47,162 nt of DNA from Sodaliphilus sp. (lineage in GTDB: Bacteria; Bacteroidota; Bacteroidia; Bacteroidales; Muribaculaceae), in the NCBI GenBank assembly GCA_045112115.1, contig JBGUHM010000047.1:1-47162 (forward strand). The letters are read 5' to 3'. The notes under the pieces were generated by a model. The model was not told the origin of the DNA. It worked only from the letters and a program-made list of their open reading frames with translations, and did not search any database. The translations under genes were made by a program, and so were the position numbers. Of this stretch, positions 1,183-46,251 are shown piece after piece (position 1 is the stretch's first letter; the number at the start of each line of letters is the position of its first letter).

Positions 1183-2517
1183 TTAGTTAGGTCCCTTGTA
1201 TTTCTTGATGTGCTTGAATCGGCACCACGATGTGTCGCGTCGCATAGCTTCGACGTTCGGCACGTAGAGCGTCACCTGGTCGTAATGGTACGGTTCGAAA
1301 ATGGAGTCGATAACAGTGACCCATCCGCCGCAACCTATTCCCGGCGGAATTTCCAGATGTGGCATTGTGATGCTCTTGAGTCGTTTGCATCCCTTGAATG
1401 AGTGCGCTTGAACGCCAAATTTGGCCATATCAACCGTAATATGCTCTAACTCATCGTGATCGCGGAAGCAGCCGAATCCCACTTCAGCAACAACCCACGT
1501 TCTGCCATCGAAGCGTTTTTCGCGCTCCAATATAACACTTTTTGTCTTCGTGCCCTGATACTGCGCACTTACACGGTTGGAGTTTGCATTATCCCAATTG
1601 GTGTAAACAAAGCCTTCATTCCCCCCATCGCGGAAAACGAAGCGTCCCGAGGGACTCTCCAGTTTCTGCCTGCCGGCATACCCCAATCCCAGCAGGATAG
1701 CGGCAGATACCAGCGACACCCCGATGGCGAGTGCCGATGCACGAATCCATCGCCGGTTTCGCTGTTGCTTTTCTATGTCTTCGGAAATCTGGTCGATTGT
1801 CTGGTATCGCTCGTTGATGGGCAGCAGGCATTTCTTTACCACCTTAGTGTAGGGCCCTCCCAGATGCATCATGCCCAGCACCACGCCCAAGCTGTAGATG
1901 TCGTTTCTCGAGTCGGCGACCGTGGCGTTCATCTGTTCCGGTGCAATGAATTGTTCGGTTCCTGCCGGGTTCTTGAACACGGCGTAACTGTCGTTGTCGG
2001 CGAGCCCGAAGTCGATGATTTTCACGTTAGAGCCGTTATGCGTTACCATGATGTTATCGGGCTTGATGTCCCGATGTACCACGCCCTGACGATGCATGTA
2101 ACCCACAGCGTCGATAAGTTCATGTGCCACGCGTCGTCGCAAGCTCGGGTTCGGGTCGCTTGCGAGCCATATGTCGAGCGTAACACCGTCGACCCACTCC
2201 ATCAATATGAATGAGTCCATACCTACTTCGGGGTCGTCGCAGTTCCTCTCCATGCCGTATACCTGCGCGATGTTGGGGTGCGACATGCGCATCATCATCT
2301 CGAGTTCCTTGCGCAGGCGTTGGGTATGTGCCACATCGGCTGAGTATTCCTCTTTGAGTCCTTTGAGCACTTGCCACCGTCCGTAGCGCATGGCTCTTAC
2401 CAGTCGGCAGTGTCCGTGCGACGGTATCTCGGTAACCTGCGTATAGTGAGCCTCTATTCCCTCGTAGTCGTCGGGAACGAAACCCGAAACCAGGCTGTTT
2501 TTAGTGTTGTCGCTCAT
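1183..2517 (-). CDS. eukaryotic-like Ser/Thr protein kinase, with one TM helix and an extracytoplasmic C-terminal domain containing BspA-type LRR-like repeats
   Basis: Kinase subdomain motifs HRDIKPDNIMV and DFGLA are present. A hydrophobic helix follows (WIRASALAIGVSLVSAAILLGLGYAG). The C-terminus carries FGCFRDHDELEHITV and FKGCKRLKSITMP, which resemble the LRR_5 repeat signature. Confidence 0.9.
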   Translation of the reverse strand: MSDNTKNSLVSGFVPDDYEGIEAHYTQVTEIPSHGHCRLVRAMRYGRWQVLKGLKEEYSADVAHTQRLRKELEMMMRMSHPNIAQVYGMERNCDDPEVGMDSFILMEWVDGVTLDIWLASDPNPSLRRRVAHELIDAVGYMHRQGVVHRDIKPDNIMVTHNGSNVKIIDFGLADNDSYAVFKNPAGTEQFIAPEQMNATVADSRNDIYSLGVVLGMMHLGGPYTKVVKKCLLPINERYQTIDQISEDIEKQQRNRRWIRASALAIGVSLVSAAILLGLGYAGRQKLESPSGRFVFRDGGNEGFVYTNWDNANSNRVSAQYQGTKTKSVILEREKRFDGRTWVVAEVGFGCFRDHDELEHITVDMAKFGVQAHSFKGCKRLKSITMPHLEIPPGIGCGGWVTVIDSIFEPYHYDQVTLYVPNVEAMRRDTSWCRFKHIKKYKGPN

Positions 2518-3107
2518 TCGTCACTGTCGTTTTGGATAATCTCAAAGCGCACGCCGTCCTGCTTGCCACAGACGTATGCTGTGGGCGCCTTGCCGTATCG
2601 CCGCAGGTTGCTCAGCCACAACGGTTCACCGCTGACAATTAGGCTGCAGTTGAACCAGTCGCCAGCTTTAACTCCGGTGTTTTGAGACGAGAGTACTTCG
2701 AATTCGTTGTCGCCTCGATACACCACGTCGCACACACGTTGCGGGGCCCATGTCAGTCTCACGCGGGTGCCTTCGTCGATGTCGGTGCTAACGGTGATTT
2801 TGTCGTTTAGTACCTGTGCGCTCACGATGTGAGAGTTGCTTTCGCGGTTAGACACATAGTCGGCCCAGTCGCGATATCCCGTCAGTCGACAGAGTGTTGA
2901 CAGAGTGCTGTTGGTGGGCGATGACAGATATTTCGAATACCCCCACAGACGTTTCAGCGTCGACTCGCTCACTCGCTCGTTGAGTTCGCTGTAAATTACC
3001 TCATGAAGGAAAGCGAAGTCTTTTGGCGAGATAAATCCGCGTTGCAGTTTGCTCTCTATATCAGCGAGCAGCAATTTGATGTATTTGTCGTCTTGAGCCA
3101 TATTCAA
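2514..3107 (-). CDS. hypothetical protein, translationally coupled to the Ser/Thr kinase (ATGA overlap)
   Basis: A 197-aa ORF whose stop overlaps the kinase start by 4 bp. I recognise no domain. It sits at the head of a divergent promoter region shared with the LRR gene. Confidence 0.6.
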   Translation of the reverse strand: MNMAQDDKYIKLLLADIESKLQRGFISPKDFAFLHEVIYSELNERVSESTLKRLWGYSKYLSSPTNSTLSTLCRLTGYRDWADYVSNRESNSHIVSAQVLNDKITVSTDIDEGTRVRLTWAPQRVCDVVYRGDNEFEVLSSQNTGVKAGDWFNCSLIVSGEPLWLSNLRRYGKAPTAYVCGKQDGVRFEIIQNDSDE

Positions 3108-4844: not shown

Positions 4845-4890
4845 GACAGTCCTTATGTTTGTAGACTCAAACGCAAACATAGGAACTGTC
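4845..4890 (+). terminator. long stem-loop (17 bp stem: gacagtccttatgtttg / caaacataggaactgtc) downstream of the LRR gene
   Basis: A near-perfect inverted repeat with a 12-nt loop. There is no strong T-tract, so this may be a terminator or an RNA-stability/regulatory hairpin. Confidence 0.4.
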
Positions 4891-4989: not shown

Positions 4990-5063
4990 ATAGGTTCAAA
5001 CCGAGCCAAAACGATTCAAATCGAATCAAATTACATGGTTTTAAATTTGAATCGGTTTGAACC
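4990..5063. repeat. dyad-symmetric element, copy 2: ataggttcaaaccga gccaaaac gattcaaatcgaatcaaa ... aatttgaatcggtttgaacc
   Basis: A 12-bp perfect inverted repeat GGTTCAAACCGA/TCGGTTTGAACC with nested GATTCAAAT/ATTTGAATC. It shares the 15-bp ATAGGTTCAAACCGA with copy 1. Confidence 0.6.
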
Positions 5064-5257
5064 ATTCACCTTAATTGCTGAATTTGTATATTTGTGCACC
5101 GGATTGGAAACATTCCGCAACATTTTGAAATAAAAAAGCGACATGTTGATACTTGTGATCTGAGACTGACAGACTACGACCTCAACAGAGCAGTCCTCGC
5201 TTTATGTGTTATATATTAACCGTCACCTCATGGACTGCTGGACGGTATTTAATAAAT

Positions 5258-5800
5258 ATGGAAAACCAAAGTACAAAGTACGGTAATGTACAGAAGTGTC
5301 CGCAATGTGGCGCTCCAGTGGAACCAATGGCTGTGAAGTGCAGCACATGTGGCTATGAATTTCGAAATGTTGAAGCACTTAAGTCTGCTCAACAATTGGC
5401 TGCAAAACTTGAAGAAATTGAAAACGCATATCGAGATAAGGGTATGGGTTTCATGGGAAGTGCTGATCTAAGAAAATTACAAGAAACTGCCACAGCAATT
5501 AAAGTCTTTGCGATACCAACAGCCAAAGAAGACCTGTTGGATTTTGCTATATCAATGCAAAGTAGATGGAATACAGAAGAAGTTGATTATTTGCGAAAAG
5601 CTTTTAAAGCTAAATATGACGAATGCATCAACAAAGCAAAGATTCTATTCCCGAACGATCCCATGTTCCAGGGCTTATTTGACCAACATAACAAAGACAA
5701 TAAAAAGATATCGCCCAAGACCAAGATGTTGATAATTATTGGACTGGTGATGTTATTAATGCTTGCGATGATAATCGGTCTTGGATTTGCATTTAAATAA
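5258..5800 (+). CDS. zinc-ribbon protein with a C-terminal transmembrane anchor
   Basis: Begins MENQSTKYGNVQKCPQCGAPVEPMAVKCSTCGYEF (a C-x2-C ... C-x2-C zinc ribbon). A helical region follows, then the C-terminal TM MLIIIGLVMLLMLAMIIGLGFAF. I took the internal ATG of the 5204 ORF as the start. Confidence 0.6.
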   Translation: MENQSTKYGNVQKCPQCGAPVEPMAVKCSTCGYEFRNVEALKSAQQLAAKLEEIENAYRDKGMGFMGSADLRKLQETATAIKVFAIPTAKEDLLDFAISMQSRWNTEEVDYLRKAFKAKYDECINKAKILFPNDPMFQGLFDQHNKDNKKISPKTKMLIIIGLVMLLMLAMIIGLGFAFK

Positions 5801-5840
5801 TGAATTGTAGTCTCCTTTAAATTGAATCCAATATTAAATT

Positions 5841-7217
5841 ATGGCATTATTTGGAAGAGGTAAAAGTGGCGGAATGATGAATGTCATCCGTTGCGACGAG
5901 GAACAATACCTTGTGTGGAAATGGCGCCCACTTGGGCAAGACGTTAACTCAACGTCGCGCGAGAACAGCATACGTTACGGCAGCAGTCTGCGAGTGAAGG
6001 ACGGCGAGGTTGCTGTGTTTGTGTATAAACAGAAAGACGGCACGATGCAGGACTTTATTGAGGGCCCATACGATGACACTATAAAGACGGCCAACTTCCC
6101 AGTACTTTCAAGCATTGTGGGACTTGCTTTCGGTGGAGAGTCGCCGTTCCAGGCCGAGGTCTATTTCATAAACCTACAAGGGAACAATCAAATCAAGTTT
6201 GGAATTCCTTATTTTGATGTGACCGACCCTAACAATGATTACCTGCCGGTACCTGTAGCTGTTCGCGGGACAATGACTTTCGCTCTTGAGGATTATCGCA
6301 ACTTCATAAAGCTAAACCGCTTGATAAATTTTGACTTAGAGGCGTTTAAGACACAAATTAGAGACACTATGATTCGCAAGATCAAAGGCATAATTACCAA
6401 TGTGCCTCATGATTTGAATTTGCCTCTGGTAAGGATTGAAAGCAAGGTTGACGAGATATCCGACTTGGTTGAACAACGCCTTAACGGTCGCATGGACGAG
6501 TTCGGTGTTACAATGAAACACATCGACTTATCAGCAATCGAATTGGATAAAGAGAACTCCAATTACGCGGAACTCAAGGCACAAACAGCCAACATAATCT
6601 CCAACACACGCATTATGCAGAGTGAAATTAATTTGCGTAATATGGACGACATGCAACGTCTAAACACGCAAAACATGGAAGAAACTTTGCGAATTCAGCG
6701 TGAGGAAGCTCAGAGAGCGCAGAAACTTCAGACTGAAACAAACTTCCTGGGCGCACATGCGCTTAATCAGCAGACCGATGTGCTCAAGACCGGTGCACAA
6801 AGTCTTGGACAAATGGGCCAGATGAATCTCGGAGGCGGTTCCGGTATGAACCCAGGAGGAGCGATGGCTGGAATGATGATGGGAGGAGCGTTAGGACAGC
6901 AAATGGCTGGTATGATGCAGAATGTTGGCCAGCAAGTGCAGATGGGAATGCAACAGCCTCCTCAGATGCCGCAGTCACAGTACTTTGTTAACATCAACAA
7001 TCAGCAGACGGGGCCGTTCTCCGTACAACAGCTTGCCCAGATGGCCCAAAGCGGTCAGGTGACGGCACAGAGCTACGTATGGAAGCAGGGAATGCCTCAA
7101 TGGGATATTGCAGGCAATGTGCAGGAACTGCAGTCATTGTTTACCCCGGCAATGCCTCCAATGCCTCCAATGCCTCCAATGCCAGGCGGCGGTAACACAC
7201 CTCCGCCAATGCCTTGA
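5841..7217 (+). CDS. Band-7/SPFH-like protein (PF13421-like family, often annotated virion core protein T7 gp14-like) with a C-terminal DUF4339/GYF-like domain
   Basis: The N-terminal ~250 aa are paralogous to the protein at 44028..45344. Next come a Q/N-rich coiled region and a G/M/Q low-complexity linker. The motif YFVNINNQQTGPFSVQQLAQMAQSGQVTAQSYVWKQGMPQWDIAGNVQELQSLF matches DUF4339. The protein ends in a PPMPPMPPMP tail. Confidence 0.8.
   Translation: MALFGRGKSGGMMNVIRCDEEQYLVWKWRPLGQDVNSTSRENSIRYGSSLRVKDGEVAVFVYKQKDGTMQDFIEGPYDDTIKTANFPVLSSIVGLAFGGESPFQAEVYFINLQGNNQIKFGIPYFDVTDPNNDYLPVPVAVRGTMTFALEDYRNFIKLNRLINFDLEAFKTQIRDTMIRKIKGIITNVPHDLNLPLVRIESKVDEISDLVEQRLNGRMDEFGVTMKHIDLSAIELDKENSNYAELKAQTANIISNTRIMQSEINLRNMDDMQRLNTQNMEETLRIQREEAQRAQKLQTETNFLGAHALNQQTDVLKTGAQSLGQMGQMNLGGGSGMNPGGAMAGMMMGGALGQQMAGMMQNVGQQVQMGMQQPPQMPQSQYFVNINNQQTGPFSVQQLAQMAQSGQVTAQSYVWKQGMPQWDIAGNVQELQSLFTPAMPPMPPMPPMPGGGNTPPPMP
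7151..7186 (+). repeat. 9-bp coding tandem repeat (aatgcctcc)x4 encoding PMPPMPPMP
   Basis: Direct repeats are visible in the sequence at the 3' end of the 5841..7217 CDS. Confidence 0.7.
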
Positions 7218-7235
7218 TGATTAAAGGAGAATATT

Positions 7236-7577
7236 ATGGATGACAACAGTTTTTTCTCGGTTGACAGACTTGTTGAGTTTGGACTTGGTATGGCCATGGC
7301 CCAACAGATGGTAGGCATGATGAACCAGACCATGCAAACCATGCAGATGCCAGGCAGGCTGCAGAGGGTACAAGTAGAACCAATGTTCTATGTTGTTTTG
7401 GATAATAATCCTGTTGGGCCATTAAGCGATAAAGATTTGGCTCAACTTGTGCTGAATCACAAAGTGACCAAAGACACCTTATCATGGATGCCAGGTATGA
7501 CAACCTGGAAACCCATTGAGCAAGTGCCAGCAATACTGAAAGTAATCGCATTGACACCATCACCAATCAATATATAG
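7236..7577 (+). CDS. small stand-alone DUF4339/GYF-like domain protein
   Basis: An M/Q-rich N-terminus is followed by MFYVVLDNNPVGPLSDKDLAQLVLNHKVTKDTLSWMPGMTTWKPIEQVPAIL, which is DUF4339-like. A good AAAGGAG Shine-Dalgarno sits 8 nt upstream. The gene begins 18 bp after the Band-7 gene. Confidence 0.7.
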   Translation: MDDNSFFSVDRLVEFGLGMAMAQQMVGMMNQTMQTMQMPGRLQRVQVEPMFYVVLDNNPVGPLSDKDLAQLVLNHKVTKDTLSWMPGMTTWKPIEQVPAILKVIALTPSPINI

Positions 7578-7581
7578 TAAG

Positions 7582-7935
7582 ATGAAAATAAGTATAATAC
7601 CAACAATTATAGCATTGGCTTTAGCCACACTTATCGGCGTTCTTATCTGGTCGTGGTGTTCATCTGCCGATAATGCCACTGCAATAGGAATCACAACGGC
7701 GGCATCACTTGCTCTCACCTTAATCCCGAGTATGGGACTGAAGCTGGAAAGTGGACGGGTGCAGACTAATGTTCGTGTGTTATCAGTCGTTTTTGCGCTG
7801 ATATTTCTGGTGGTTGCTATTATCATGTGTTTCATAACGAGTAAGACAATAATAACCTACTATGTCATAGAAGGTGTTATAGCATTGATATTTATTTCAA
7901 TCCTATATGGCTTAATTAAAATCAAAGATGTTTAA
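7582..7935 (+). CDS. small polytopic membrane protein (about 4 TM helices)
   Basis: Four hydrophobic stretches of about 20 aa each. The gene sits directly downstream in the same orientation, at the start of the low-GC region. Confidence 0.55.
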   Translation: MKISIIPTIIALALATLIGVLIWSWCSSADNATAIGITTAASLALTLIPSMGLKLESGRVQTNVRVLSVVFALIFLVVAIIMCFITSKTIITYYVIEGVIALIFISILYGLIKIKDV

Positions 7936-7957
7936 CGTTTAAATTGTTTTTTATAAA

Positions 7958-8251
7958 ATGGGAATTCAAAAAATCAGAGTATCTGCTCAAGAGGCTAAAA
8001 AGTATGCTAATGTGAGCCGTGGCAATGGAGAAGACTTCTTTGAAGCAACTGTTTATACAGATGAGAACGGCAACATTGATGCAGAGAGAACTTACACACT
8101 TTCTTATCGCAACGGTACAATGGATCAGTTGGATGCGCAGCGCGATAGGGATGAAAAAAGTTTAGAGAGAAAAGCCAGGGCCATTTTGAGCTCAGATTTT
8201 GCATGTGGAGAAATTTTTGATTATTTATGTTGCTGTGGCTGGTGTTGTTGA
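7958..8251 (+). CDS. small hypothetical protein with a cysteine-rich C-terminal tail (…DFACGEIFDYLCCCGWCC)
   Basis: A 97-aa ORF in low-GC DNA. It ends with 6 Cys in the last 8 residues. It has no signal peptide. Confidence 0.45.
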   Translation: MGIQKIRVSAQEAKKYANVSRGNGEDFFEATVYTDENGNIDAERTYTLSYRNGTMDQLDAQRDRDEKSLERKARAILSSDFACGEIFDYLCCCGWCC

Positions 8252-8286
8252 TGGAATTTTAAGGCATTTCATTTAATCTCTTTTGA

Positions 8287-9198
8287 ATGGCATTGTGGAA
8301 AAAGGTATTATATAGAACAATATCTGTAGTATTATTGTTTTGTGTGATTATTTTATCGTTTTTGCCATTGAGATTACTGTATGTTTTCTCAACACTTTAT
8401 TCATATTGTTATGTTAAATTAGCCTCGAAACGTAGCAACGCAAGATTAAAACGGAACCAGCGGCGTTGTTTTCAAAACAACAGCGCCGCTGACCTTTATC
8501 GTCTTCACTATCTTACAGTTCGTACAAAGGTTGATTTCTTAGCGGAAATGATAAAGAATCCATATTTGTCAAAAAAGGCAATTAAACAACGATGTGTTTT
8601 CACGAATATAGAAGTAATATTTGAAGCGTTCAAGGAGCATCAATTTGTTATTTGTTATTGTGGGCATTTGGTGAACTTTGAGTTGCTTGTTAGTTTCCCG
8701 TTACATACATCCAATTATGGGATGTGTCATTTGTATCTTGCAAAGAATGCGAAACAAAATTTATTGTTAAAAACTGTACTTTGGACACGGTCGAGGTTTG
8801 GAGCAATTAACATCCCTACTTATTCTCCATTGAGAACTCTTATGCAATTGCGCGAAGATCTCGATAACGGAAAGAGTGTTAAGAAAGGATACGTTTTTGG
8901 TACACTTGCAGATATGGATGACATGGGTGGCAATCCACACTATTCCTCGTTTTTTGGATACCCCCTTGCTGTAAAAACTGGGTCGGAGCGAATAGGACGA
9001 AAGATGAATATGGCATTTGTTTTTGCGCAAATAACTATGCCGAAACGCGGATTTTACGAGGTTAAATTCATTAAGATGGATCCAACGGACAAAGATACCA
9101 ATCCTTGCGCCTACACCGACGAGTTTGTAAGACTGCTTGAGCAAAATATTCGATTGCAACCGCAATTGTGGTTGCAATGGAATTCTCCACGCTTTTAG
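8287..9198 (+). CDS. LpxL/HtrB-family (lysophospholipid/lipid A) acyltransferase
   Basis: An N-terminal TM segment is present. The motif GHLVNFE fits the HX4D/E acyltransferase motif of LPLAT/LpxL enzymes. The length is about 300 aa and the DNA is low-GC. Confidence 0.7.
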   Translation: MALWKKVLYRTISVVLLFCVIILSFLPLRLLYVFSTLYSYCYVKLASKRSNARLKRNQRRCFQNNSAADLYRLHYLTVRTKVDFLAEMIKNPYLSKKAIKQRCVFTNIEVIFEAFKEHQFVICYCGHLVNFELLVSFPLHTSNYGMCHLYLAKNAKQNLLLKTVLWTRSRFGAINIPTYSPLRTLMQLREDLDNGKSVKKGYVFGTLADMDDMGGNPHYSSFFGYPLAVKTGSERIGRKMNMAFVFAQITMPKRGFYEVKFIKMDPTDKDTNPCAYTDEFVRLLEQNIRLQPQLWLQWNSPRF

Positions 9199-9300
9199 AT
9201 TCTTTTTCTTATTGTTTAAACACTATCCTCCATATAATAATAAGCGTCAGTTATTCAGATTGTTGTTGCTATGGCGCTTGCAATGCACGAGTGGGACGAA

Positions 9301-9328
9301 AAAGCCGATGCTGTGATGCGTCGGCTTT
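9301..9328 (+). terminator. rho-independent terminator after the acyltransferase gene
   Basis: Stem aaagccga/tcggcttt with a 12-nt loop, followed by gttgttggggttttt. Confidence 0.5.
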
Positions 9329-9407
9329 GTTGTTGGGGTTTTTGGGTGGAATTGGTTAAATATTTGAAAAAAGGGCGTTTTGATTGGGATGGAAGACAAC
9401 TTTTCAC

Positions 9408-9415
9408 TACTTTTG
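9408..9415 (+). promoter_or_regulatory. TAnnTTTG -7 box (TACTTTTG) upstream of the DUF4290 gene
   Basis: The motif sits 31 nt before the ATG at 9447. Confidence 0.35.
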
Positions 9416-9446
9416 CGGTTGTTTTAAATAGGAAGATACATATAAT

Positions 9447-10037
9447 ATGCTGACTTATAACTCTAAAATGAAGAAACTGGTGCTGCCTGAGTATGGTCGC
9501 AACATCCAGCAGATGGTGGACTACTGCGTGACGATCGAGGACCGCGAGGAGCGTAATCATTGCGCCTACTCGATTATCAACACGATGGGCAACCTGTTTC
9601 CCGAGTTGCGTAATGAAGCCGACTACAAGCATAAGCTGTGGGATCATCTGGCGATCATGAGCGACTTCCAGCTTGACATCGACTATCCTTACCCTGTGGT
9701 GACAGAGGCGTCGCTGTCGACGCAGCCCGAGCCTATCCGTTACCGTTTGGAGCCCATCAAGTACCGTCATTACGGCAAGATAATGGAGCGTATGATTGAC
9801 CGCGCGTGTGAATACCCGGAAGGGGAGGAGCGTGAGGCGCTTGCGATGCTGCTTGCCAACCACATGAAGAAGGTTATTTTCCAGATAAGCAAGGAGGACG
9901 TCGACGACGCGAAGATTTTCAAGGATTTGGAGTTCTACTCGAAGGGCCGCATCAAGCTTGACCCGGCGACTCACCAGCTTCATGAGTACAAGCTGGCCTC
10001 GAAACCTCAGCAACAGGGCAAGAAGAAAAAGAAATAA
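9447..10037 (+). CDS. conserved Bacteroidetes hypothetical protein (DUF4290-like) with a Lys-rich C-terminus
   Basis: A 196-aa ORF with coding-like composition and an ending of QQQGKKKKK. It lies immediately upstream of rimM. Confidence 0.65.
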   Translation: MLTYNSKMKKLVLPEYGRNIQQMVDYCVTIEDREERNHCAYSIINTMGNLFPELRNEADYKHKLWDHLAIMSDFQLDIDYPYPVVTEASLSTQPEPIRYRLEPIKYRHYGKIMERMIDRACEYPEGEEREALAMLLANHMKKVIFQISKEDVDDAKIFKDLEFYSKGRIKLDPATHQLHEYKLASKPQQQGKKKKK

Positions 10038-15967: not shown

Positions 15968-17536
15968 ATGAAAAGACTTTTACTTCCATGCTTAATGGCC
16001 GTGATGCTTTGCACGGCTGCAAGTGCACAACAAACCCTCACAGTTGCCGAGGGCACCAATGAGCACAGTTGGGCACCGTTTGCCACCGGTTCTTATTGGA
16101 GTAAACCTGGCTGTCGTACGCAGGTGATTTATCCCGCGGAGTCGTTGACAGCCATGGTGGGTTCCGATATCTATTCGATTAAATTTTATGTGAAAACTTC
16201 CGGCGGAATGTGGATGTCGGGCGGTAAGAGCCGCATCTCGATGGGAACGACCACGATTAGCTCGTTCTACAACTCATTCGTCGAGAATCTAACTCCTGTC
16301 GCCGTTGATGTCCCTGGTCCGGAAACGGGTATGACCGAATTGGAGATTGTTTTCGATGAGCCGTTCACTTATACTGGAGGCAACTTAGTGTATGAGTGGG
16401 AGCTGACCGAAGCCGGAGACTATACGACCTATGTCACAAGTTTCGTCGGCGTAAGGGGCGACAAGTATACCATGGCGTTCTTGCCTGCTGGCGATAGTAT
16501 GATGTACCTAAATACAGAAAAGTTTACACCGAAGACCACATTCACCTACGGGCACGTGTTCGTAACTACGAAACAGCTCGACTTCGGTGAGTTGCTGCCC
16601 AACTCGCAACGAGAATTGTCGGTGAAGGTTAAAAACGTAGAATCGACAGCCGTCACTCCTGTCATCAGCGGTTTGGAGGGACCGTTCAGCAGTGATTACA
16701 CCCCGACAACTCTTTCTCCTGGCGAGACATTGACCATTCCTGTCAAATTCACACCTACCGAGCTCGGCGAGTTCACGGGTGGACTAACCATTCAATGTGG
16801 CGAGTACGGCAACTATGAGGTTGCGCTCAAGGGCAATTCCGTTCGCTCGATTGACATAACCGTGTGCAACGGCAAGGACAAGACTCACAACCTGCCTATC
16901 CACGGTACATACATGGACGAGAAGAATACCTTCTCCCAGATGATTTATCCAGCTGAAAAACTCACTGATGCAGTCGGCCACAAGATTACGAGCATCAAGT
17001 TCTACGCAACCGAAGGCCTTCAGTGGAGCAAACCCACGCTTGAGTTGAGCTTAGGCGAAACTGACCAGATTGAATTCGGTTCAATAATTACTGACCTTTC
17101 AGTTTGCAGCACTACATCTCCTTCAGTCGGTGACACTGAGTTGGTGTTCAACTTCAACGAGCCATTTGAATACAATGGCGGCAATTTTGCTGTGCAGTTG
17201 AAGATTACCAAGGCAAGCAATTTCTATGGCGCATATTTCTATGGTGAGAACCAGGAGGTAAACACCGGCTACTGCCTGTATTACCTCAACAACGGCCAGT
17301 TAACCGATACCGAACTCGTGAAGTTCTTGCCAAAAATGACCATCACCTTCGCCGACCAGGCTTTAGCCATTCCGGGCGACCTTAACGGCGACGGCAATGT
17401 GAACACGGGTGACGTGAGCGCACTTTATAAAGCTCTGTTGGCCGGCGCCACCGACGCGATGTACGACCTCAACGGCGACGGCAACGTGAACACAGGTGAC
17501 GTTTCTGCACTCTACAAAATCATTTTAGGAAACTAA
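15968..17536 (+). CDS. secreted protein with two internal repeat domains, an ASH/HYDIN-like Ig domain and a C-terminal type-I dockerin-like repeat pair
   Basis: A signal peptide is present. The protein ends in DLNGDGNVNTGDVSALYKALLAG…DLNGDGNVNTGDVSALYKIILGN, two 22-24 aa Ca-binding F-hand dockerin repeats. Confidence 0.8.
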   Translation: MKRLLLPCLMAVMLCTAASAQQTLTVAEGTNEHSWAPFATGSYWSKPGCRTQVIYPAESLTAMVGSDIYSIKFYVKTSGGMWMSGGKSRISMGTTTISSFYNSFVENLTPVAVDVPGPETGMTELEIVFDEPFTYTGGNLVYEWELTEAGDYTTYVTSFVGVRGDKYTMAFLPAGDSMMYLNTEKFTPKTTFTYGHVFVTTKQLDFGELLPNSQRELSVKVKNVESTAVTPVISGLEGPFSSDYTPTTLSPGETLTIPVKFTPTELGEFTGGLTIQCGEYGNYEVALKGNSVRSIDITVCNGKDKTHNLPIHGTYMDEKNTFSQMIYPAEKLTDAVGHKITSIKFYATEGLQWSKPTLELSLGETDQIEFGSIITDLSVCSTTSPSVGDTELVFNFNEPFEYNGGNFAVQLKITKASNFYGAYFYGENQEVNTGYCLYYLNNGQLTDTELVKFLPKMTITFADQALAIPGDLNGDGNVNTGDVSALYKALLAGATDAMYDLNGDGNVNTGDVSALYKIILGN

Positions 17537-17552
17537 TCTTTTAAATCTGGCA

Positions 17553-18446
17553 ATGATGAAAAAGATAACATTTTTATTATTGTTGATGTTGGTGACGTCA
17601 TCGGCTTGGGCATTGCCGTTTGTGACTACGCCAAGTCCTTCGACTTATCCCATCCATTGGTATAAGTTGAAAATCAACGGGATGTATTTGTTCACTACGC
17701 CCTATGATGAATGGGCGGTCGAAGCAAACTCTACCTGTGAGGACACTGATGATTACATGTGGTGCTTCGTGGAATTTGCTTCCGGGAAGATTGCTGTTTA
17801 CAACAAGGGCCGGGAGAAGTATATGGAAGATTGTTTCTACTTAACACCAAATACATCAGCCTCGTACATCAACCTTGTTGAGGCCGGCAGCGGAAACAAC
17901 TTCTACATTTACTACATGCTGAACAGCACTCAGAAAATGTATCTGGATTATGATTACGAAAATGGGCAGAGTTCTTGGAGCTATAAGGTTCACGCATTCA
18001 CGGTGGAAGGTGAAATTATTGAAGACCCAGAATTGACAGATGTACCAAAGATAACCGTTGAACCCAGTAGTGACTATTATGTGATTCGTGCTACCGGCAA
18101 CGGCGAAGTGAAACTCTATGTGGATGGTGTAAGGGTGGGTAACCCATACACCCACGGACGCCCCCTTTATGTGTACAATAAAATCATCATCAAAGCCACG
18201 GCAAAGGAAGCGGGCAAGCTTGAGAACTCCGCCACAATGTCAGCCATCTTGGCTCCGCGAGGCAAACCTGAGGCCAAAGTAGGCGACATCAACTTTGACG
18301 GCTTTGTTAACACCGGTGACGTGAGCGAACTATACAAGGCCATTCTGTTCGGCGCCACCGATGCTATTTGCGACTTGAACGACGACGGCTCGGTTAATAC
18401 TGGTGACGTAAGTACGCTGTACAAATTCATCATTGGCAATAATTGA
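17553..18446 (+). CDS. secreted dockerin-like repeat protein (N-terminal domain paralogous to the next gene)
   Basis: A signal peptide is present. The protein ends in DINFDGFVNTGDVSELYKAILFG…DLNDDGSVNTGDVSTLYKFIIGNN. Confidence 0.8.
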   Translation: MMKKITFLLLLMLVTSSAWALPFVTTPSPSTYPIHWYKLKINGMYLFTTPYDEWAVEANSTCEDTDDYMWCFVEFASGKIAVYNKGREKYMEDCFYLTPNTSASYINLVEAGSGNNFYIYYMLNSTQKMYLDYDYENGQSSWSYKVHAFTVEGEIIEDPELTDVPKITVEPSSDYYVIRATGNGEVKLYVDGVRVGNPYTHGRPLYVYNKIIIKATAKEAGKLENSATMSAILAPRGKPEAKVGDINFDGFVNTGDVSELYKAILFGATDAICDLNDDGSVNTGDVSTLYKFIIGNN

Positions 18447-18508
18447 TGTAAGATGTTTTTTTGTATGCAATGTTGTTTCTTATATTTTTTAAATAATATA
18501 ATTGCAAA

Positions 18509-20143
18509 ATGAAAAAGATAACCTTTCTATTGTTATTGATGTTGGTGTCGGTTACCGCTTCGGCGCTACCTTTTGTGACCACGTCAAGTCCCACGGCTTA
18601 TCCCATCCACTGGTATCAGTTGAAAATCAACGGTAAGTACCTATATTCCTATACCGGGCAATGGGTGGATGTAGATGCGAGTAGTTCGGCATCGACCGCC
18701 GATGCTTACCTATGGTGTTTCGTCACAACATCTTCGGGCAAGACATTGGTGTTCAACAAAGCTAAAAGGCAATATATGCGCAGCGGTTACTTGTTCACCA
18801 CCGACATGGCAAATAGTGCCATCAACTATGTGGTGGAAGGAACCGGCAACACGTTCTACATCTGCTTCAAAGCTGAGGGTACGACATTTTATCTAGATTA
18901 TGATGAGGACAACGGTTTGCATTCCCCGTCATGGAAGATGAATGCATTCACGGCCATTGAAGCTTTGGTCCAGAACGAGGCGCCCACTCCCAGCGGCGAA
19001 CTCGAGCTGACCCTCGACGAGTATGATGAATACTGCATGCTTTCGGCCGGTTACACCGGAAACGAAGAGCATACGGTGACCCTTAATGTAGATGGGCGTA
19101 ACGTGAACAATCCATACAGAGTCACGCGTACCTATCAAGATAAAAATCTTGATGTCATAGCTACAGTGACGTTCAACGATATGGATCCTGTTGTCGTCCA
19201 GCAAACGGTAACCGTTCCGGCCAAACCGCTAACTGATCTCACAGGAGAAGTCATATTTGATGTGGAAGAGAATGAGAGAAACTGTGTGATTTCGGTTTAT
19301 TATGTCGGTCCAGAATCTTATTCGCTTGCGCTATATGCCAACGGTCAACTGGTCAACGAGCCTTATACAGTGGCACGTACTGCGGTAGACCAACATATCA
19401 CCATGAAAGCAGTGATTACGGCATCGGGAAAGAATCCTCTTGTCGTCGAGGAAGTGGTGACAATCCCCAAGTATGTGGAGCCAGAGCTCGATTTGACATT
19501 CACCGCTTACAGTGTGTCCAGTAATGTTTCTAATCCTACGGGAGGACAAGGATTTATGAAACTCTTCGACAAGAACCCTAACACCAAGTGGCTTGTGTTA
19601 TTCGACACCGAGGACTGGCAGACAGTCTTTGTCGAATTCCGTAGCGACAAGCCATTCGTTCCCACAGGTTACGTGATGACCACGGGCGACGACACACAGA
19701 ACAATCCCAACCGCAATCCCAAAGCGTGGAAAATCTATGGTAGAGTGGATTGGATGGAAGACTGGGAGATTCTTGCCGATGTTACCGATGGCGCGGCTGC
19801 AGGCTTGGGTTCAGGCTCTGTGACCGACTATAACTTCGACATCACCGGCCTCAAGAAAGAATACCGTCAGTTCCGCTTTGAGGTGATCGATGTGAACGGT
19901 GTTGAGAGCAGCGGCTTGCACGTTTTCCAGCTTGCAGAGCTGCGTTTAAGAGGCAAGGCGGCGAGCAGCGAACCTTCTGGCGACCTGAACGGTGACGGCA
20001 ACGTGAACACGGGTGACATAAGCGCACTCTATACAGCCGTGCTGTCTGGCTCGACCGACGCAATGTACGACATCAACGGCGACGGCAACGTGAACACCGG
20101 CGACGTCTCGGCCCTGTATGCAATTATTCTCGGGTCGAATTGA
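18509..20143 (+). CDS. secreted protein with Ig-like repeats, an F5/8 type C (discoidin)-like domain and a C-terminal dockerin-like repeat pair
   Basis: The N-terminal ~150 aa are paralogous to 17553..18446. FMKLFDKNPNTKWL…NPKAWKIYG…QFRFEV is discoidin-like. The protein ends in DLNGDGNVNTGDISALYTAVLSG…DINGDGNVNTGDVSALYAIILGSN. Confidence 0.8.
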   Translation: MKKITFLLLLMLVSVTASALPFVTTSSPTAYPIHWYQLKINGKYLYSYTGQWVDVDASSSASTADAYLWCFVTTSSGKTLVFNKAKRQYMRSGYLFTTDMANSAINYVVEGTGNTFYICFKAEGTTFYLDYDEDNGLHSPSWKMNAFTAIEALVQNEAPTPSGELELTLDEYDEYCMLSAGYTGNEEHTVTLNVDGRNVNNPYRVTRTYQDKNLDVIATVTFNDMDPVVVQQTVTVPAKPLTDLTGEVIFDVEENERNCVISVYYVGPESYSLALYANGQLVNEPYTVARTAVDQHITMKAVITASGKNPLVVEEVVTIPKYVEPELDLTFTAYSVSSNVSNPTGGQGFMKLFDKNPNTKWLVLFDTEDWQTVFVEFRSDKPFVPTGYVMTTGDDTQNNPNRNPKAWKIYGRVDWMEDWEILADVTDGAAAGLGSGSVTDYNFDITGLKKEYRQFRFEVIDVNGVESSGLHVFQLAELRLRGKAASSEPSGDLNGDGNVNTGDISALYTAVLSGSTDAMYDINGDGNVNTGDVSALYAIILGSN

Positions 20144-42477: not shown

Positions 42478-43545
42478 CTACTGTCCGGCGAGGAATCGTT
42501 GCGCGCCCATGGCTCGCATCTGCTGGCTGTTGTTTAGGATTTTCTTTTTTCGCACAGTGTAGAAAATCCAGCTGCCGACAAACCCGAGACCTCCTATTAT
42601 GGCGAACGCCCATCCCAGTTCGCTTACCGATTGGCTTTGAGAGAGTATCAAACCAAGGATTCCGAGGATAGCGGTAACCCAGAACAGCCAGTTGAACTTG
42701 TTGACGAATTTGCGTTCGCTCTTGTCTTCCGGGTTGGTAAGGCGTTCCTGGCGTCCGGTGCCGTCCATGATAAAATAGTACTTCTGCTGCTGGTAGTTGT
42801 AGTATACGAACCAGAATGGAACAAGCACGAGCACGCCCCGTTGAGCGAGATCGACCGCGACATTCTTCTGCAGGTCGCTCACGTCGCTACCGGCTTGCTG
42901 GCGTATGCCGTCGTCGGCAATCTTATCGGCCATTGCCTGACCGTAACGGCTCCAGATTATTTCCGGGTCGGTGTTCACGGCCAGCGTGGTGAGGTTGGAG
43001 TCGGGGTCGTTACCAATGATGGCGGGGTTGTACATTTGAGTAGAGTTCACCGTATAGGGGAACGTGGCTGTGAAGGCCTTGAGCTCTTCGGGGATGTCGT
43101 CGCCTTCATAGGCCAGACACAGGAAGGAGAAATTGCCGAAGGCATTGCCGTTGACATAGCGTTTGCGCGAGCGTCGAGTGCCGTTGTCGTCGTAAGTCTC
43201 CCTCACGTTGCCGCTCCATGAAGCCTGATAACGGCCTTCGTAGAGGTACATAGGCAGATAGGCCTTCATGGTGTCGTCGGCATGCAGGTAGTCGAAGACG
43301 TCTTTCGGCACATAGGGCCGACGGATAAGCGCGTTCACCAGATGCTGGCCGAAGTCTTCCTCACGCGTGGTGAAAGGAATAATGCGCTCGGGCTGCTTCA
43401 TCGATTTCTGCACCGCGATGGCATTGGGGTTTCGCAGCATGGTGTGGCAATACGGGCATTCGACCTGTGTCTTAAACTCGTTGAATGATGTGATGTTTGC
43501 CCCGCAGTTGGGACATTTCACTTGTTGTAATTCTAATGTTGCCAT
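42478..43545 (-). CDS. zinc-ribbon protein with a central domain of unknown function and two C-terminal TM helices
   Basis: The N-terminus reads MATLELQQVKCPNCGANITSFNEFKTQVECPYCH. The C-terminal hydrophobic pair is WLFWVTAILGILGLILS / WAFAIIGGLGFVGSWIFYTV. Confidence 0.65.
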   Translation of the reverse strand: MATLELQQVKCPNCGANITSFNEFKTQVECPYCHTMLRNPNAIAVQKSMKQPERIIPFTTREEDFGQHLVNALIRRPYVPKDVFDYLHADDTMKAYLPMYLYEGRYQASWSGNVRETYDDNGTRRSRKRYVNGNAFGNFSFLCLAYEGDDIPEELKAFTATFPYTVNSTQMYNPAIIGNDPDSNLTTLAVNTDPEIIWSRYGQAMADKIADDGIRQQAGSDVSDLQKNVAVDLAQRGVLVLVPFWFVYYNYQQQKYYFIMDGTGRQERLTNPEDKSERKFVNKFNWLFWVTAILGILGLILSQSQSVSELGWAFAIIGGLGFVGSWIFYTVRKKKILNNSQQMRAMGAQRFLAGQ

Positions 43546-43551
43546 ATTGTG

Positions 43552-44016
43552 TTATTCGTTTGTTTGATTGTTTTCGTTCTCGGTTTGTTTTTTTGCCTCT
43601 TCAAGCTGTTGGCGGTCACGCTCAAGGTTCTTGCGGGTATGATCGTTCATCAAATATCCTGTGAGCAGCACAGCCATGGCCAAGGCGAAGAGCACGACCT
43701 GTGTGATAAGCGCCACAATGTAAGCGGTGTCGCTTTTATACCACCAGAACAGGAAAATAGCGGCTACGACACATTCTACAATAAAATAAAACGTTGCCAC
43801 AGCTACGAGCGACCAACTCAAGACTTTTTCTTCCCCATTCTGCTTATTGAGCAGAGATGGCAGCAACAAAGTGAGAAAGGCCACATGGAGGAAAGCGTAA
43901 GAGACCCATCTCGTGGCATTCATCGACCCTGTGTCAACCAGCAGGAAGAACAATACATTGAACACCAAAGGGAATAGCAGCATCAAAACTATCGATGCGA
44001 TTGTTGTACCTTTCAT
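43552..44016 (-). CDS. small polytopic membrane protein (4 TM) with a charged C-terminal tail
   Basis: Four hydrophobic helices, then a coiled charged C-terminus. It lies between the Band-7 and zinc-ribbon genes. Confidence 0.6.
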   Translation of the reverse strand: MKGTTIASIVLMLLFPLVFNVLFFLLVDTGSMNATRWVSYAFLHVAFLTLLLPSLLNKQNGEEKVLSWSLVAVATFYFIVECVVAAIFLFWWYKSDTAYIVALITQVVLFALAMAVLLTGYLMNDHTRKNLERDRQQLEEAKKQTENENNQTNE

Positions 44017-44027
44017 AATAGTTGGGT

Positions 44028-45344
44028 TTAGAGGTTGGCAAGAACTTCACGTTTCACAGCATCGTATTCGCTTTGCTCGATGAGCCCGGCGTCAAGTAGT
44101 TTTTTCAGCTTAGCCAGTTTCTCCATCGGGTCGTCGGCCGGTTGCTGTGCAGGGGCGGCGGTTCCCGCGGCTACACCCGCCATGGCACCTGCAGCCATAC
44201 CTGTAGCCATTTGCTGTCCAGGGATAGGCGGTTGCTGTCCAGGGATAGGCGGCTGCTGTCCGTGGATAGGTGGTTGTTGTCCATAGGGCTGCTGGCCGTA
44301 AGGCTGCTGTCCATAGGGCTGTTGTCCGTAAGGCTGCTGTCCATAGGGCTGCTGTTGTCCATAGGGCTGCTGGCCGTAAGGCTGTTGTTGTCCATATGGG
44401 TTCTGGTTTATGCCGCCGAATGTGTTGGCAGCCATCTGGCCGAAGGCACCGCCAGCGGCCATACCCATGCCCATACCCATGCCCATACCGGCCATGCCGC
44501 CTACTTGTCCCTCGTTGGTGCTTACGCCGTGAGCCATGTCCTGCATGATTTCCATGCCTTTGATGGTCTGGTAACCGGCGCCCATGAGGTCATACTCACG
44601 CTTGCGTGCGTAGGCGTTCTCGAGATGCTGACGGTTGGGGTCGTCCTCGGGGATGTCCATCGCCGAAATCGAGAAATTCTGCAGCTTAAGGCCATATTCA
44701 CCGAGTATCTCGGCTATCATGGGGGTGATCTTTGTAGCGAAGGTGTCGAGTTCGGCGCAGATGCCCAGCAACTCCTCGCCGCTGTTCTTCAACCCTTTGG
44801 CGATAGTAGATTTAATCGACTGTTGGAATTGGTTTGAGAAATAACGTTCCAAATCGCCGGGTTTGAGTTGGTTGAGATTCGAACCTACAAGTTTGGTGAT
44901 AAACTTGGCGCTGTCGTCAATCATTATTTTATAAGAGCCACGTGCCTTGATGCTGGTGGCTATGCCTTGAACCGGGTCGCGCAACTGGATGGGCGAGTCG
45001 GTACCCCAGAGAATCTCTTGAGTGTCGCTCTTGCGGATGAAATACACGAAGCAGTTGAACGTGGAGATGCCACCGCTGAGCATGTTGCGCAGGCGGCTCA
45101 GGAACACGTAGTTCTGCGTTGAAAGTATATATCGTCCGTTGGTGAAAATCTGCTGAATCTCACCGTTCTTCACAAATACGGCCTCTTCGCCTGGGTTGAC
45201 TGTAAGCACCGAATGGGTGTTGAAGTCTTCTTCCGGTTGTTTCCAGACGAGCACTCCTGCAGGTCCTGAATTTTTCAACGACTCCAAGATGTGTTTCTTT
45301 CCACCTTGGTAATTGGCTTCATTTGGATTGCGAAATAAACTCAT
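44028..45344 (-). CDS. Band-7/SPFH-like protein (paralog of 5841..7217) with a GM-rich linker, (PYGQQ)n/(PPIPGQQ)n repeats and a C-terminal SHOCT domain
   Basis: The N-terminal ~270 aa align with 5841..7217 (MSLFRNP…VLVWKQPEE vs MALFGRG…YLVWKWRP). The C-terminus [31 protein letters not shown] is a SHOCT motif. Confidence 0.8.
44208..44398 (-). repeat. in-frame coding tandem repeats: 21-bp x3 (PPIPGQQ) plus 15-bp x about 9 (PYGQQ)
   Basis: Near-identical DNA units ccatagggctgctg(g/t)ccgtaaggctg… are read directly from the sequence. Confidence 0.8.
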
Positions 45345-45444: not shown

Positions 45445-46251
45445 TTACTCTTTTGGCGGTGCAGGCACCAGCCGGCCGCTCAATTCGTAAAGAAGGTAGA
45501 TGGGGAGGAATACCACGGAGAGTGTGAACGGGTCGCCTGTGGGGGTTATGATGGCCGCCACCACCAGCAACACCACTATGGCGTGCCGGCGGTATTCCTT
45601 AAACATCCCGCGGTGGAGAATTTCCAACTTGCCCAACAGCCAGCACAGCAGCGGTAACTCAAAGACCACGCCCATGATGAAAATCAGTGCAATAAACGTG
45701 TCCATATAGGAGTCGAGCGAAATCTGGTTGGGCACCATGTCGCTTACGTGATAGTCGGCAAGGAAACGCAGCGTTACCGGAAACACCACATAATATCCCA
45801 CTGCCACTCCGATAAAGAACATAATCACCCCGAAACCGAAGGCGGTACGCACCCCTTTCTTCTCATTGGGGTAAAGCGCAGGAGACACGAAACCCCACAG
45901 AAAATAAAGAAGCAGCGGGAAGGTGAGCACGATAGCCAGCCAGCATGATGTGCTGATGTGGATAAAAAACTGCGAGGCCAGTTGGATGTTGATAAGGTTT
46001 ACCTTGAAACCTTCGGTGGAGAAGTCGGGGCCGTAAGGAATGGCCTCGGTGATTTTCTGGAACAGCCTGTATAGAGGGAAATCGCCGCGACAGGGCGCCA
46101 GAATCACGTTGTCGAAAATGTCGGGCATAAAAGCAAACAGAGCCACGGCCGCGATAATCACGGTCACGGCTATGCGAATCAGAACCCACCTGAGTGCTTC
46201 CAGGTGGTCCCAGAACGTCATCTCTTGAAGTGGCCCGTCGTTGTCTGCCAT
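45445..46251 (-). CDS. tatC: twin-arginine translocase subunit TatC
   Basis: MTFWDHLEALRWVLIRI… with six TM helices, typical of TatC. Confidence 0.9.
   Translation of the reverse strand: MADNDGPLQEMTFWDHLEALRWVLIRIAVTVIIAAVALFAFMPDIFDNVILAPCRGDFPLYRLFQKITEAIPYGPDFSTEGFKVNLINIQLASQFFIHISTSCWLAIVLTFPLLLYFLWGFVSPALYPNEKKGVRTAFGFGVIMFFIGVAVGYYVVFPVTLRFLADYHVSDMVPNQISLDSYMDTFIALIFIMGVVFELPLLCWLLGKLEILHRGMFKEYRRHAIVVLLVVAAIITPTGDPFTLSVVFLPIYLLYELSGRLVPAPPKE

Follow-up and report, generated by a model that had tools for sequence, protein, structure and literature searches.

The four genes and their products

Positions 5258 to 7935 of contig JBGUHM010000047.1 (assembly GCA_045112115.1), from Sodaliphilus sp. 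of the Muribaculaceae (Bacteroidota), carry four co-oriented genes that make up an uncharacterised but widespread form of the SPFH scaffold systems of YdjI type. The whole contig, 47,162 nt long, was analysed and is here called the window. The four genes lie on the forward strand and encode, in this order, a zinc-ribbon protein (5258..5800, 180 amino acids (aa)), an SPFH-GYF protein (5841..7217, 458 aa), a small GYF protein (7236..7577, 113 aa) and a membrane protein with four transmembrane (TM) segments, the 4-TM protein (7582..7935, 117 aa). A preliminary description of the locus, made from the sequence alone, had listed four open reading frames (ORFs) separated by 40, 18 and 4 bp, and coordinates, strand and spacing were all borne out. 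The start at 5258 agrees with that of a 180-aa database protein (P0271). Relatives of the SPFH-GYF protein numbered at least 8000 at the 90%-cluster level among the matches listed, all of them with the same two domains, and 4975 representatives at the 50%-cluster level, so that the genes are real and not chance ORFs.

The SPFH-GYF protein belongs to the SPFH superfamily and, within it, to the YdjI-type Band_7_1 subfamily. Its SPFH domain (PF13421; 5961..6557, + strand, aa 41-239) was recognised by Pfam with an E-value of 3.3e-27 and 95.9 bits, far above the cut-off of 24 bits, and profile positions 8-199 of 211 were covered. This agrees with the family that had been named from the letters alone. 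In an AlphaFold2 (AF2) model of the monomer the core of this domain (aa 103-235) reached a predicted local distance difference test (pLDDT) value of ~90, and the model matched stomatin, HflK/C, QmcA, prohibitin and flotillin in Foldseek, with E-values down to 2e-6, a probability of 1.00 and a target-normalised TM-score of up to 0.69. The modelled core and the structural matches both have the α/β fold of SPFH domains. The domain is followed in the model by a long single helix (6558..6803, + strand, aa 240-321). The Foldseek alignments to cage-forming proteins comprised 220-340 columns, which exceeds the ~200 residues of the SPFH domain, and hence they must extend into this helix. It appears to correspond to the wall helix of SPFH cages, and its length suggests that the SPFH-GYF protein oligomerises. 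No hydrophobic or TM segment was found by hydrophobicity in the 458 residues of the protein.

The C-terminal third of the protein has a different character. As read from the sequence, a low-complexity linker rich in G, M and Q that ends in a PPQMP tract (6804..6980, + strand, aa ~322-380) precedes a GYF_2 domain (PF14237, formerly DUF4339; 6981..7130, + strand, aa 381-430; Pfam E 2.7e-19, 69.1 bits with a cut-off of 25.8), and the protein ends in the proline-rich tail PAMPPMPPMPPMPGGGNTPPPMP (7146..7214, + strand, aa 436-458), which contains PAMPPMPPMPPMP. The linker, the GYF-like domain and a PPMP repeat tail had been noticed before, and all three are present. These elements are conserved: more than 60% of the linker consists of G, M, Q, N or A in 74 of 82 orthologues, a PPPxP-type tract stands ahead of the GYF domain in 81 of the 82, and a tail with at least 4 prolines per 8 residues follows it in 79. 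When 43 diverse SPFH-GYF representatives were aligned, G391 of the GYF domain was invariant and P392, W414, G417 and W421 were conserved in at least 90% of the sequences. The domain, modelled with moderate confidence, was similar to the GYF domain of GltJ (structure 7z3c; phmmer E 7e-6), and Foldseek, with the GYF part matched separately, returned the GYF domains of GltJ, GIGYF1/2 and Smy2, so that the core residues and the fold of a GYF domain are both in place. The ligand of the GYF domains is most plausibly formed by the proline-rich tracts of the SPFH protein itself, together with those of soluble zinc-ribbon variants encoded elsewhere. A short N-terminus of the type MGLF, MGLI or MGFF, followed by D, S or G and by K, was seen in several proteins of the module and of its accessory genes, in the window (5841-5870) and in five other loci (L009, L073, L083, L018 and L024); it resembles the start of the N-terminal membrane-binding helix of PspA/Vipp1.

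The small GYF protein carries its PF14237 domain at aa 52-98 (45.1 bits, the same cut-off of 25.8; E 8.5e-12), so that DUF4339 was found in both proteins in which the preliminary description had placed it. Ahead of the domain lie an N-terminal motif (aa ~5-25, consensus SFFSIDRLVEFGMGMAxAQQM), which is strongly conserved over 68 orthologues, and a Met-rich stretch, and a short P-containing tail follows the domain. BLASTP aligned this protein with aa 351-421 of its neighbour, the SPFH protein, at 32% identity (71 aa, E 6e-9), and the small protein is a paralogue of the C-terminal third of that protein, linker and GYF domain together. The same description had pointed to an AAAGGAG ribosome-binding site ahead of this gene. 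The site is present, 7 nt upstream of the ATG at 7236, but it is not conserved: a GGAG, AGGA or GAGG core was found upstream of only 3 of 68 orthologous small-GYF genes, and therefore the site is not a feature of the module and is peculiar to this Sodaliphilus genome. The idea that a Shine-Dalgarno-like site marks a special translation of the small GYF protein was rejected on the same count.

The 4-TM protein shows three strong hydrophobicity peaks and one weaker peak, and four hydrophobic blocks were borne out in an alignment of 39 homologues, as expected of a protein with four TM segments. The loop between TM2 and TM3 is conserved in this alignment as R-x3-4-N-[IV]-[RK]. The protein evolves fast, with a mean column identity of 39% over the 39 sequences. 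A database search with the 4-TM protein alone returned only 4 relatives, and no Pfam family matched its 117 aa. In the fetched loci described below the orthologous small GYF proteins are ~117 aa and the 4-TM proteins ~115 aa long. Spacing is tight throughout the module and closest between these two genes, with a median gap of 4 bp that was at most 20 bp in 58 of 60 loci, and 13 four-base overlaps of the ATGA type were found.

The zinc-ribbon protein begins with a C4 zinc ribbon (CPQC...CSTC, aa 14-31) and has a single hydrophobic segment (aa 157-175), which lies within a predicted C-terminal TM helix (aa ~153-179) that would serve as a tail anchor. A partner with a C4 zinc knuckle and a C-terminal membrane anchor is what had been described before. 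The Pfam zinc-ribbon match of the window protein was slightly below threshold (26.2 vs 27 bits), and such matches were found in 44 of 44 scanned members of the family. The family is defined by the ribbon together with a helical bundle of ~110 aa (hidden Markov model (HMM) E-values 1e-40 to 1e-60), which carries the motif F-[PA]-[IV]-P-x-[TAS]-K-x-D-[LI]-[LI]-[ED]-F, in the window in the version FAIPTAKEDLLDF; in a Pfam scan of the 44 members no family covered this helical domain. Variants in other genomes lack the TM segment and have instead an N-terminal half-domain that weakly resembles TerB/DUF533. Many of them carry a proline-rich tract as well, and some have a GYF or YARHG domain.

Signals of expression gave little. 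A scan for sigma-70 promoters stayed at chance level (11 found, 8.7 expected), as did a scan for terminators (3 found, 2.8 expected). Bacteroidetes-type TAnnTTTG motifs were present at 4854, 5042 and 5087. The TTTG closest upstream of the motif at 5087 lies, as read from the sequence, 27 nt away, which exceeds the usual spacing, and therefore no promoter was called there.

Conservation of the module across phyla

In order to follow the four genes outside the window, one genome per GTDB species was scanned. At least 589 stretches encoded a relative of the SPFH-GYF protein, and 80 of these loci were fetched; HMMs built iteratively from the four window proteins were then run against all ORFs of the fetched loci. 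The loci came from many families of Bacteroidales, from Flavobacteriales and Chitinophagales/Sphingobacteriales, and from Ignavibacteriota and Spirochaetota. The synteny counts refer to the 65 loci in which both flanks were readable. Of these, 61 carried the zinc-ribbon gene, 63 the gene of the small GYF protein and 57 that of the 4-TM protein, and 52 had the complete set of three. In nearly all fetched loci the genes stand in the order zinc-ribbon, SPFH-GYF, small GYF, 4-TM; in six of them the zinc-ribbon gene sits 3′ of the 4-TM gene and not ahead of the SPFH gene. The genes that flank the module in the window were not conserved across the loci. The proposal of a module, which would have failed had the adjacency been incidental, is upheld by a gene order that is kept in this survey of several phyla while the flanks vary, and the domain searches with HMMs had a like outcome. 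From this comparison the four genes appear to be a chromosomal module that is inherited as a unit.

An adjacency of four unrelated genes that arose incidentally has, with these results, a negligible probability. Order and strand are kept in most of the 65 loci, over several phyla and with varying flanks; the spacing is very short; and the parts of the module are found fused to one another in pairs, SPFH with GYF in the window, SPFH with the zinc ribbon (ZnR) in YdjI of Bacillus subtilis, and GYF with ZnR in two of the fetched loci (L073 and L083). Synteny, tight spacing and domain fusions together refute it.

Some loci contain an additional gene between the SPFH-GYF and small GYF genes. This optional insert was a bacterial PH-domain protein (bPH_1, E 4e-45; L050 7397-7780 and L053 3026-3403), a Yip1-like membrane protein of ~127 aa with a sub-threshold Pfam match (L018 7424-7810 and L028 7415-7798) or an uncharacterised protein of 314-337 aa (L047 7446-8390 and L079 1656-2669). 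Three of the contigs, L015, L034 and L081, carry copies of this Bacteroidota-type SPFH gene with 54-67% identity and are filed under Oscillospiraceae, Lactococcus garvieae and metagenome-assembled genomes (MAGs) of Pseudomonadota; these taxon labels are probably binning errors in public assemblies.

Relation to known systems and a possible role at the inner membrane

The only studied PF13421 protein, and the nearest characterised relative of the operon core, is YdjI of B. subtilis. YdjI is soluble and reaches the membrane only with YdjG, which has a zinc ribbon and a TM segment, and with YdjH (PMC8581546); it recruits PspA (PMC8581546; bioRxiv 10.64898/2026.02.06.704340), and the ydjGHI genes of the pspA-ydjGHI operon have been renamed samGHI, YdjI becoming SamI. 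A Bacillus-type pspA-ydjGHI locus from a metagenome (L086), found through the published ydjG primer sequence, was used as the reference. The two SPFH proteins belong to the same subfamily (PF13421, 95.9 bits for the window protein and 146.9 bits for YdjI) and are 24% identical over 234 aa (E 3e-10). Neither has a TM segment, and in both a G/M/Q/N-rich linker leads to a small C-terminal adaptor domain. Furthermore, both operons encode a zinc-ribbon protein with a C-terminal TM segment and another membrane protein. The adaptor itself differs, however: YdjI has a zinc ribbon in this place, whereas the window protein has a GYF domain between proline tracts and also a much longer helix after the SPFH domain (~80 aa in the AF2 model). 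YdjG has two zinc ribbons, a YpeB/NTF2-like domain and a TM segment, whereas the window protein combines a single ribbon with an unrelated helical domain of ~110 aa; YdjH matches PF04536 (TPM); and the window operon adds a free GYF protein and a 4-TM protein that samGHI does not have.

The joining of an SPFH/Band 7 domain to a GYF domain was already listed in 2007 (Balaji and Aravind, PMC2034487, Fig. 5; example gi 32472385), and the window protein has this same two-domain architecture. The same authors noted that bacterial GYF domains have proline-rich flanks, which they proposed as ligands, and neighbouring genes for TM proteins (PMC2034487). Their account concerns the architecture only and does not extend to a four-gene module, its phyletic spread, the zinc-ribbon/helical family or the small GYF and 4-TM partners. 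It had been stated of the window that no function was described for this gene combination. This holds only in part: a literature search, which included SPFH together with GYF, returned no paper describing the four-gene module, but the combination is less unprecedented than first thought, since YdjI/SamI has been characterised and SPFH+GYF appears in PMC2034487.

The other characterised point of reference is GltJ of Myxococcus xanthus, in which a bacterial-type GYF_2 domain is likewise tied to a zinc ribbon and a membrane protein (PDB 7z3c). For the GYF domain of GltJ a micromolar affinity for a proline-rich sequence has been shown, and an adjacent zinc ribbon is present in 44% of bacterial GYF proteins (PMC11135422). 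The module could accordingly be read as a GltJ-like ZnR-GYF switch that links a cytoplasmic regulator to an envelope machine of gliding motility or type IX secretion, a reading for which that frequency, the GYF+ZnR fusions seen within the module in L073 and L083, and the fact that the NCBIfam GltJ model is the only curated match of both GYF proteins would speak. This match, however, covers the GYF region only and scores 35.7 bits against a GltJ cut-off of 450. In GltJ ribbon and GYF domain share one chain; in the window they are separate proteins, and the GYF domain is fused to an SPFH scaffold. The window operon has neither a TonB-C domain nor a context of MglA, MglB or AglZ, no Glt, Agl, Gld or Spr genes were among the recurrent neighbours of the module, and MAGs of gut Bacteroidales as well as spirochaetes carry the module. 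Moreover, ZnR-GYF proteins outside Myxococcales are uncorrelated with MglA/MglB or AglZ (Attia et al., PMC11135422). We hold a switch of this kind to be very improbable.

The structural matches raise another possibility, namely that the SPFH protein forms a cage which surrounds and regulates a membrane client (a protease, channel or transporter, for example) whose gene lies elsewhere, as in HflK/C with FtsH and QmcA with YbbJ, and that the GYF, zinc-ribbon and 4-TM proteins are adaptors for this client. The best matches of the model, stomatin, HflK/C, QmcA-YbbJ, prohibitin and flotillin, do share with it an SPFH fold followed by a long helix. Unlike the window protein, these cage formers all have their own N-terminal membrane anchor, and they have a C-terminal cap; the window protein is without such an anchor, and its C-terminus consists of a disordered linker and a GYF domain. 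The bacterial operon partner in QmcA-YbbJ and FloT-YuaF (SPFH-NfeD) is an NfeD protein with TM segments and a C-terminal OB-fold. No NfeD profile of Pfam or NCBIfam matched any of the four window proteins, the 4-TM protein of 117 aa has neither an NfeD or OB-fold part nor any other soluble domain, and no gene for a protease, an NfeD protein or a channel was conserved in or beside the module in the fetched loci. An enclosed client is therefore unlikely.

The interpretation that we prefer, with a probability of roughly 0.55, is a scaffold under the inner membrane that is tethered and cross-linked by GYF-polyproline contacts and by two membrane partners, and that has a role in membrane organisation or stress. 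The domains, folds and synteny that were found agree with the earlier suggestion, in which an SPFH protein and adaptor modules form a scaffold at the membrane. The TM-less SPFH protein of the YdjI subfamily would most likely build rings or cages against the inner membrane, on its cytoplasmic side, as other SPFH proteins with a long helix after the domain do, so that many GYF domains and many GYF ligands would be displayed on each oligomer, every subunit contributing a flexible G/M/Q-rich linker and one GYF domain between two proline-rich tracts. Contacts in trans between GYF domains and proline tracts would then be possible, as would contacts with the small GYF protein. The latter may dock on the 4-TM protein through its N-terminal motif and hold the proline tail of the SPFH protein with its GYF domain; such a bridge between SPFH tail and 4-TM protein would fix the scaffold to the membrane. 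The tail-anchored zinc-ribbon protein would act as a second membrane anchor or as a regulator. The system as a whole might organise membrane domains or sense envelope stress, with PspA not linked to it. Such a role is likely by analogy with YdjGHI, and the optional inserts, which are membrane-associated (bPH_1 and the sub-threshold Yip1-like protein), weakly support it.

Several observations weigh against this scaffold. The parallel with YdjGHI is incomplete: phmmer searches over the 47-kb window and the fetched loci, each with flanks of up to 6 kb, gave neither a PspA (query from L086, E <= 0.01) nor a TPM-domain homologue of YdjH, and only the ribbon of the window zinc-ribbon protein aligns with YdjG (BLASTP E 3e-5 over 47 aa; hhalign 23 columns). 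No proline-rich tract is present in the window zinc-ribbon protein, so that it is not evident how this protein connects to the GYF domains in this operon. The C-terminal ends of the subunits in known SPFH cages make up a cap distant from the membrane, and hence a tether through the C-terminal tail would need a geometry that has not yet been described. The AF2 model has low confidence in the N-terminal 100 residues and in the linker, and the oligomerisation, the binding partners and the physiological role are parts that we infer. Finally, the guanine-plus-cytosine (GC) content of the module region is 0.435, against 0.486 for the whole window, and this could mean past transfer. The low values extend over ~5000-9500, which includes the module and the two genes that follow it (0.37-0.48, against 0.50-0.55 on either side), with a minimum at 7500-9500.

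A GC content below that of the flanks, together with flanking genes that vary between genomes, would also suit a system of anti-phage defence or abortive infection in which a membrane scaffold senses infection, and membrane-acting modules are common in defence systems. A role in phage defence had been thought conceivable for this locus at the outset. However, PADLOC-DB v2 and PHROGs gave no match for the SPFH, GYF and 4-TM proteins, and the matches of the zinc-ribbon protein were weak and confined to the Cys knuckle (PADLOC E >= 0.0014). The module contains no nuclease, protease, NTPase or pore-forming effector, and its neighbours in the window are housekeeping genes (TsaD-family, RimM, prolyl-tRNA synthetase (ProRS), lipid A acyltransferase-like). 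Gene order is kept over phyla and in at least 589 species genomes, unlike that of patchy defence islands. Among 72,556 plasmid records only 15 distant relatives were found, all below 60% identity, and among 50,697 phage records a single unannotated metagenomic contig, so that close homologues are nearly absent from both. With nothing specific in PADLOC, the defence option is unsupported, and we rate it as highly unlikely.

The interest of the module lies in several directions. SPFH proteins organise membranes in all domains of life, and the YdjI-type subfamily, whose sole studied example is that of Bacillus with PspA, is very widely used in Bacteroidota, including abundant Bacteroidales of gut and rumen. 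There its partners are others: GYF domains with polyproline tracts, a 4-TM protein and a new family that joins a zinc ribbon to a helical domain; a linked PspA is absent. The module offers a defined case of possible GYF-polyproline recognition in bacteria beyond Myxococcus, and it is a candidate for an envelope-stress or membrane-organisation system in Bacteroidota, whose inner-membrane stress responses are poorly known. Furthermore, at least two families that Pfam does not cover, that of the 4-TM protein and that of the helical domain in the zinc-ribbon protein, gain a provisional functional context from it.

Neighbouring genes and further PF13421 clusters

Upstream of the module and on the opposite strand lies a gene for a membrane Ser/Thr protein kinase (1183-2517, - strand, 444 aa; Pkinase E 5e-35), whose translation has one TM segment and an extracytoplasmic C-terminal region. 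It overlaps by 4 bp with a gene for a 197-aa protein of no known family (2514-3107, - strand). Members of both families lie within a few kb of the module in 13-14 loci, and their order and orientation differ from locus to locus; these loci are mostly from Prevotellaceae and Bacteroidaceae, and the kinase family was also found in one Ferruginibacter locus. The pair is possibly an accessory to the module, outside its core. A more elaborate version of the scaffold can be imagined in which the module is a PspA-independent device for membrane surveillance, specific to Bacteroidota, Ignavibacteriota and Spirochaetota, and composed of an SPFH ring, a GYF/polyproline network, a small GYF/4-TM tether, a zinc-ribbon gate and control by a kinase. 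With ~20 GYF domains and double that number of polyproline tracts on the ring, a multivalent network that can be switched would arise under the membrane, capped as well as tethered by the small GYF/4-TM pair, and in Prevotellaceae and Bacteroidaceae the neighbouring membrane Ser/Thr kinase would read out or control this network. This elaboration is speculative, and we consider it rather doubtful.

Downstream of the module, orf97 (7958-8251, 97 aa) begins 22 bp behind the 4-TM gene, and its product has the cysteine cluster CCCGWCC at the C-terminal end. It matched no Pfam family, and the PADLOC and PHROGs scans gave no specific match. It is followed by the lipid A acyltransferase-like (LpxL-like) gene (8287-9198). 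Both were considered as members of the module and rejected, no homologue having been found in any other fetched locus, though orf97, while outside the module, may be co-transcribed with it here.

The window holds a second PF13421 cluster, which is encoded on the reverse strand. It comprises an SPFH+SHOCT protein (44028-45344, 438 aa; PF13421) with a G/M-rich stretch, QQPYG and QQPPIPG repeats and a C-terminal SHOCT domain, a multi-TM protein (43552-44016, 154 aa) and a YdjG-like zinc-ribbon/TM protein (42478-43545, 355 aa), and TatC is encoded beside it (45445-46251). The 355-aa protein shares with B. subtilis YdjG the ribbon and the motif 'VLVPFWFVYYNY...MDG-TG', and on this comparison the cluster at 42478-45344 is closer to YdjG/YdjI than the four-gene operon is. 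A third type of SPFH/zinc-ribbon pairing was found in a cluster of Bacteroides finegoldii (NZ_OY725907.1, 'plasmid 5', 3327-7516; L087), with genes for a helix-turn-helix regulator, a hypothetical protein, yidD, an SPFH(+GYF) protein that is 29.5% identical to the window protein, another hypothetical protein and a zinc-ribbon protein. Although labelled a plasmid, this record carries obgE, adenylate kinase and hpt and looks like chromosomal or chromid DNA. The two clusters reinforce the general pairing of PF13421 SPFH genes with zinc-ribbon genes, to which the cluster of the window adds a small multi-TM gene.

Elsewhere in the window, three consecutive genes at 15968-20143 encode proteins of 522, 297 and 544 aa that each end in a type I dockerin domain, and one of these also has immunoglobulin-like domains of the ASH/HYDIN type. 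Such a set of genes is unusual for a Bacteroidales genome and may point to a fibre-degrading lifestyle in the rumen or gut.

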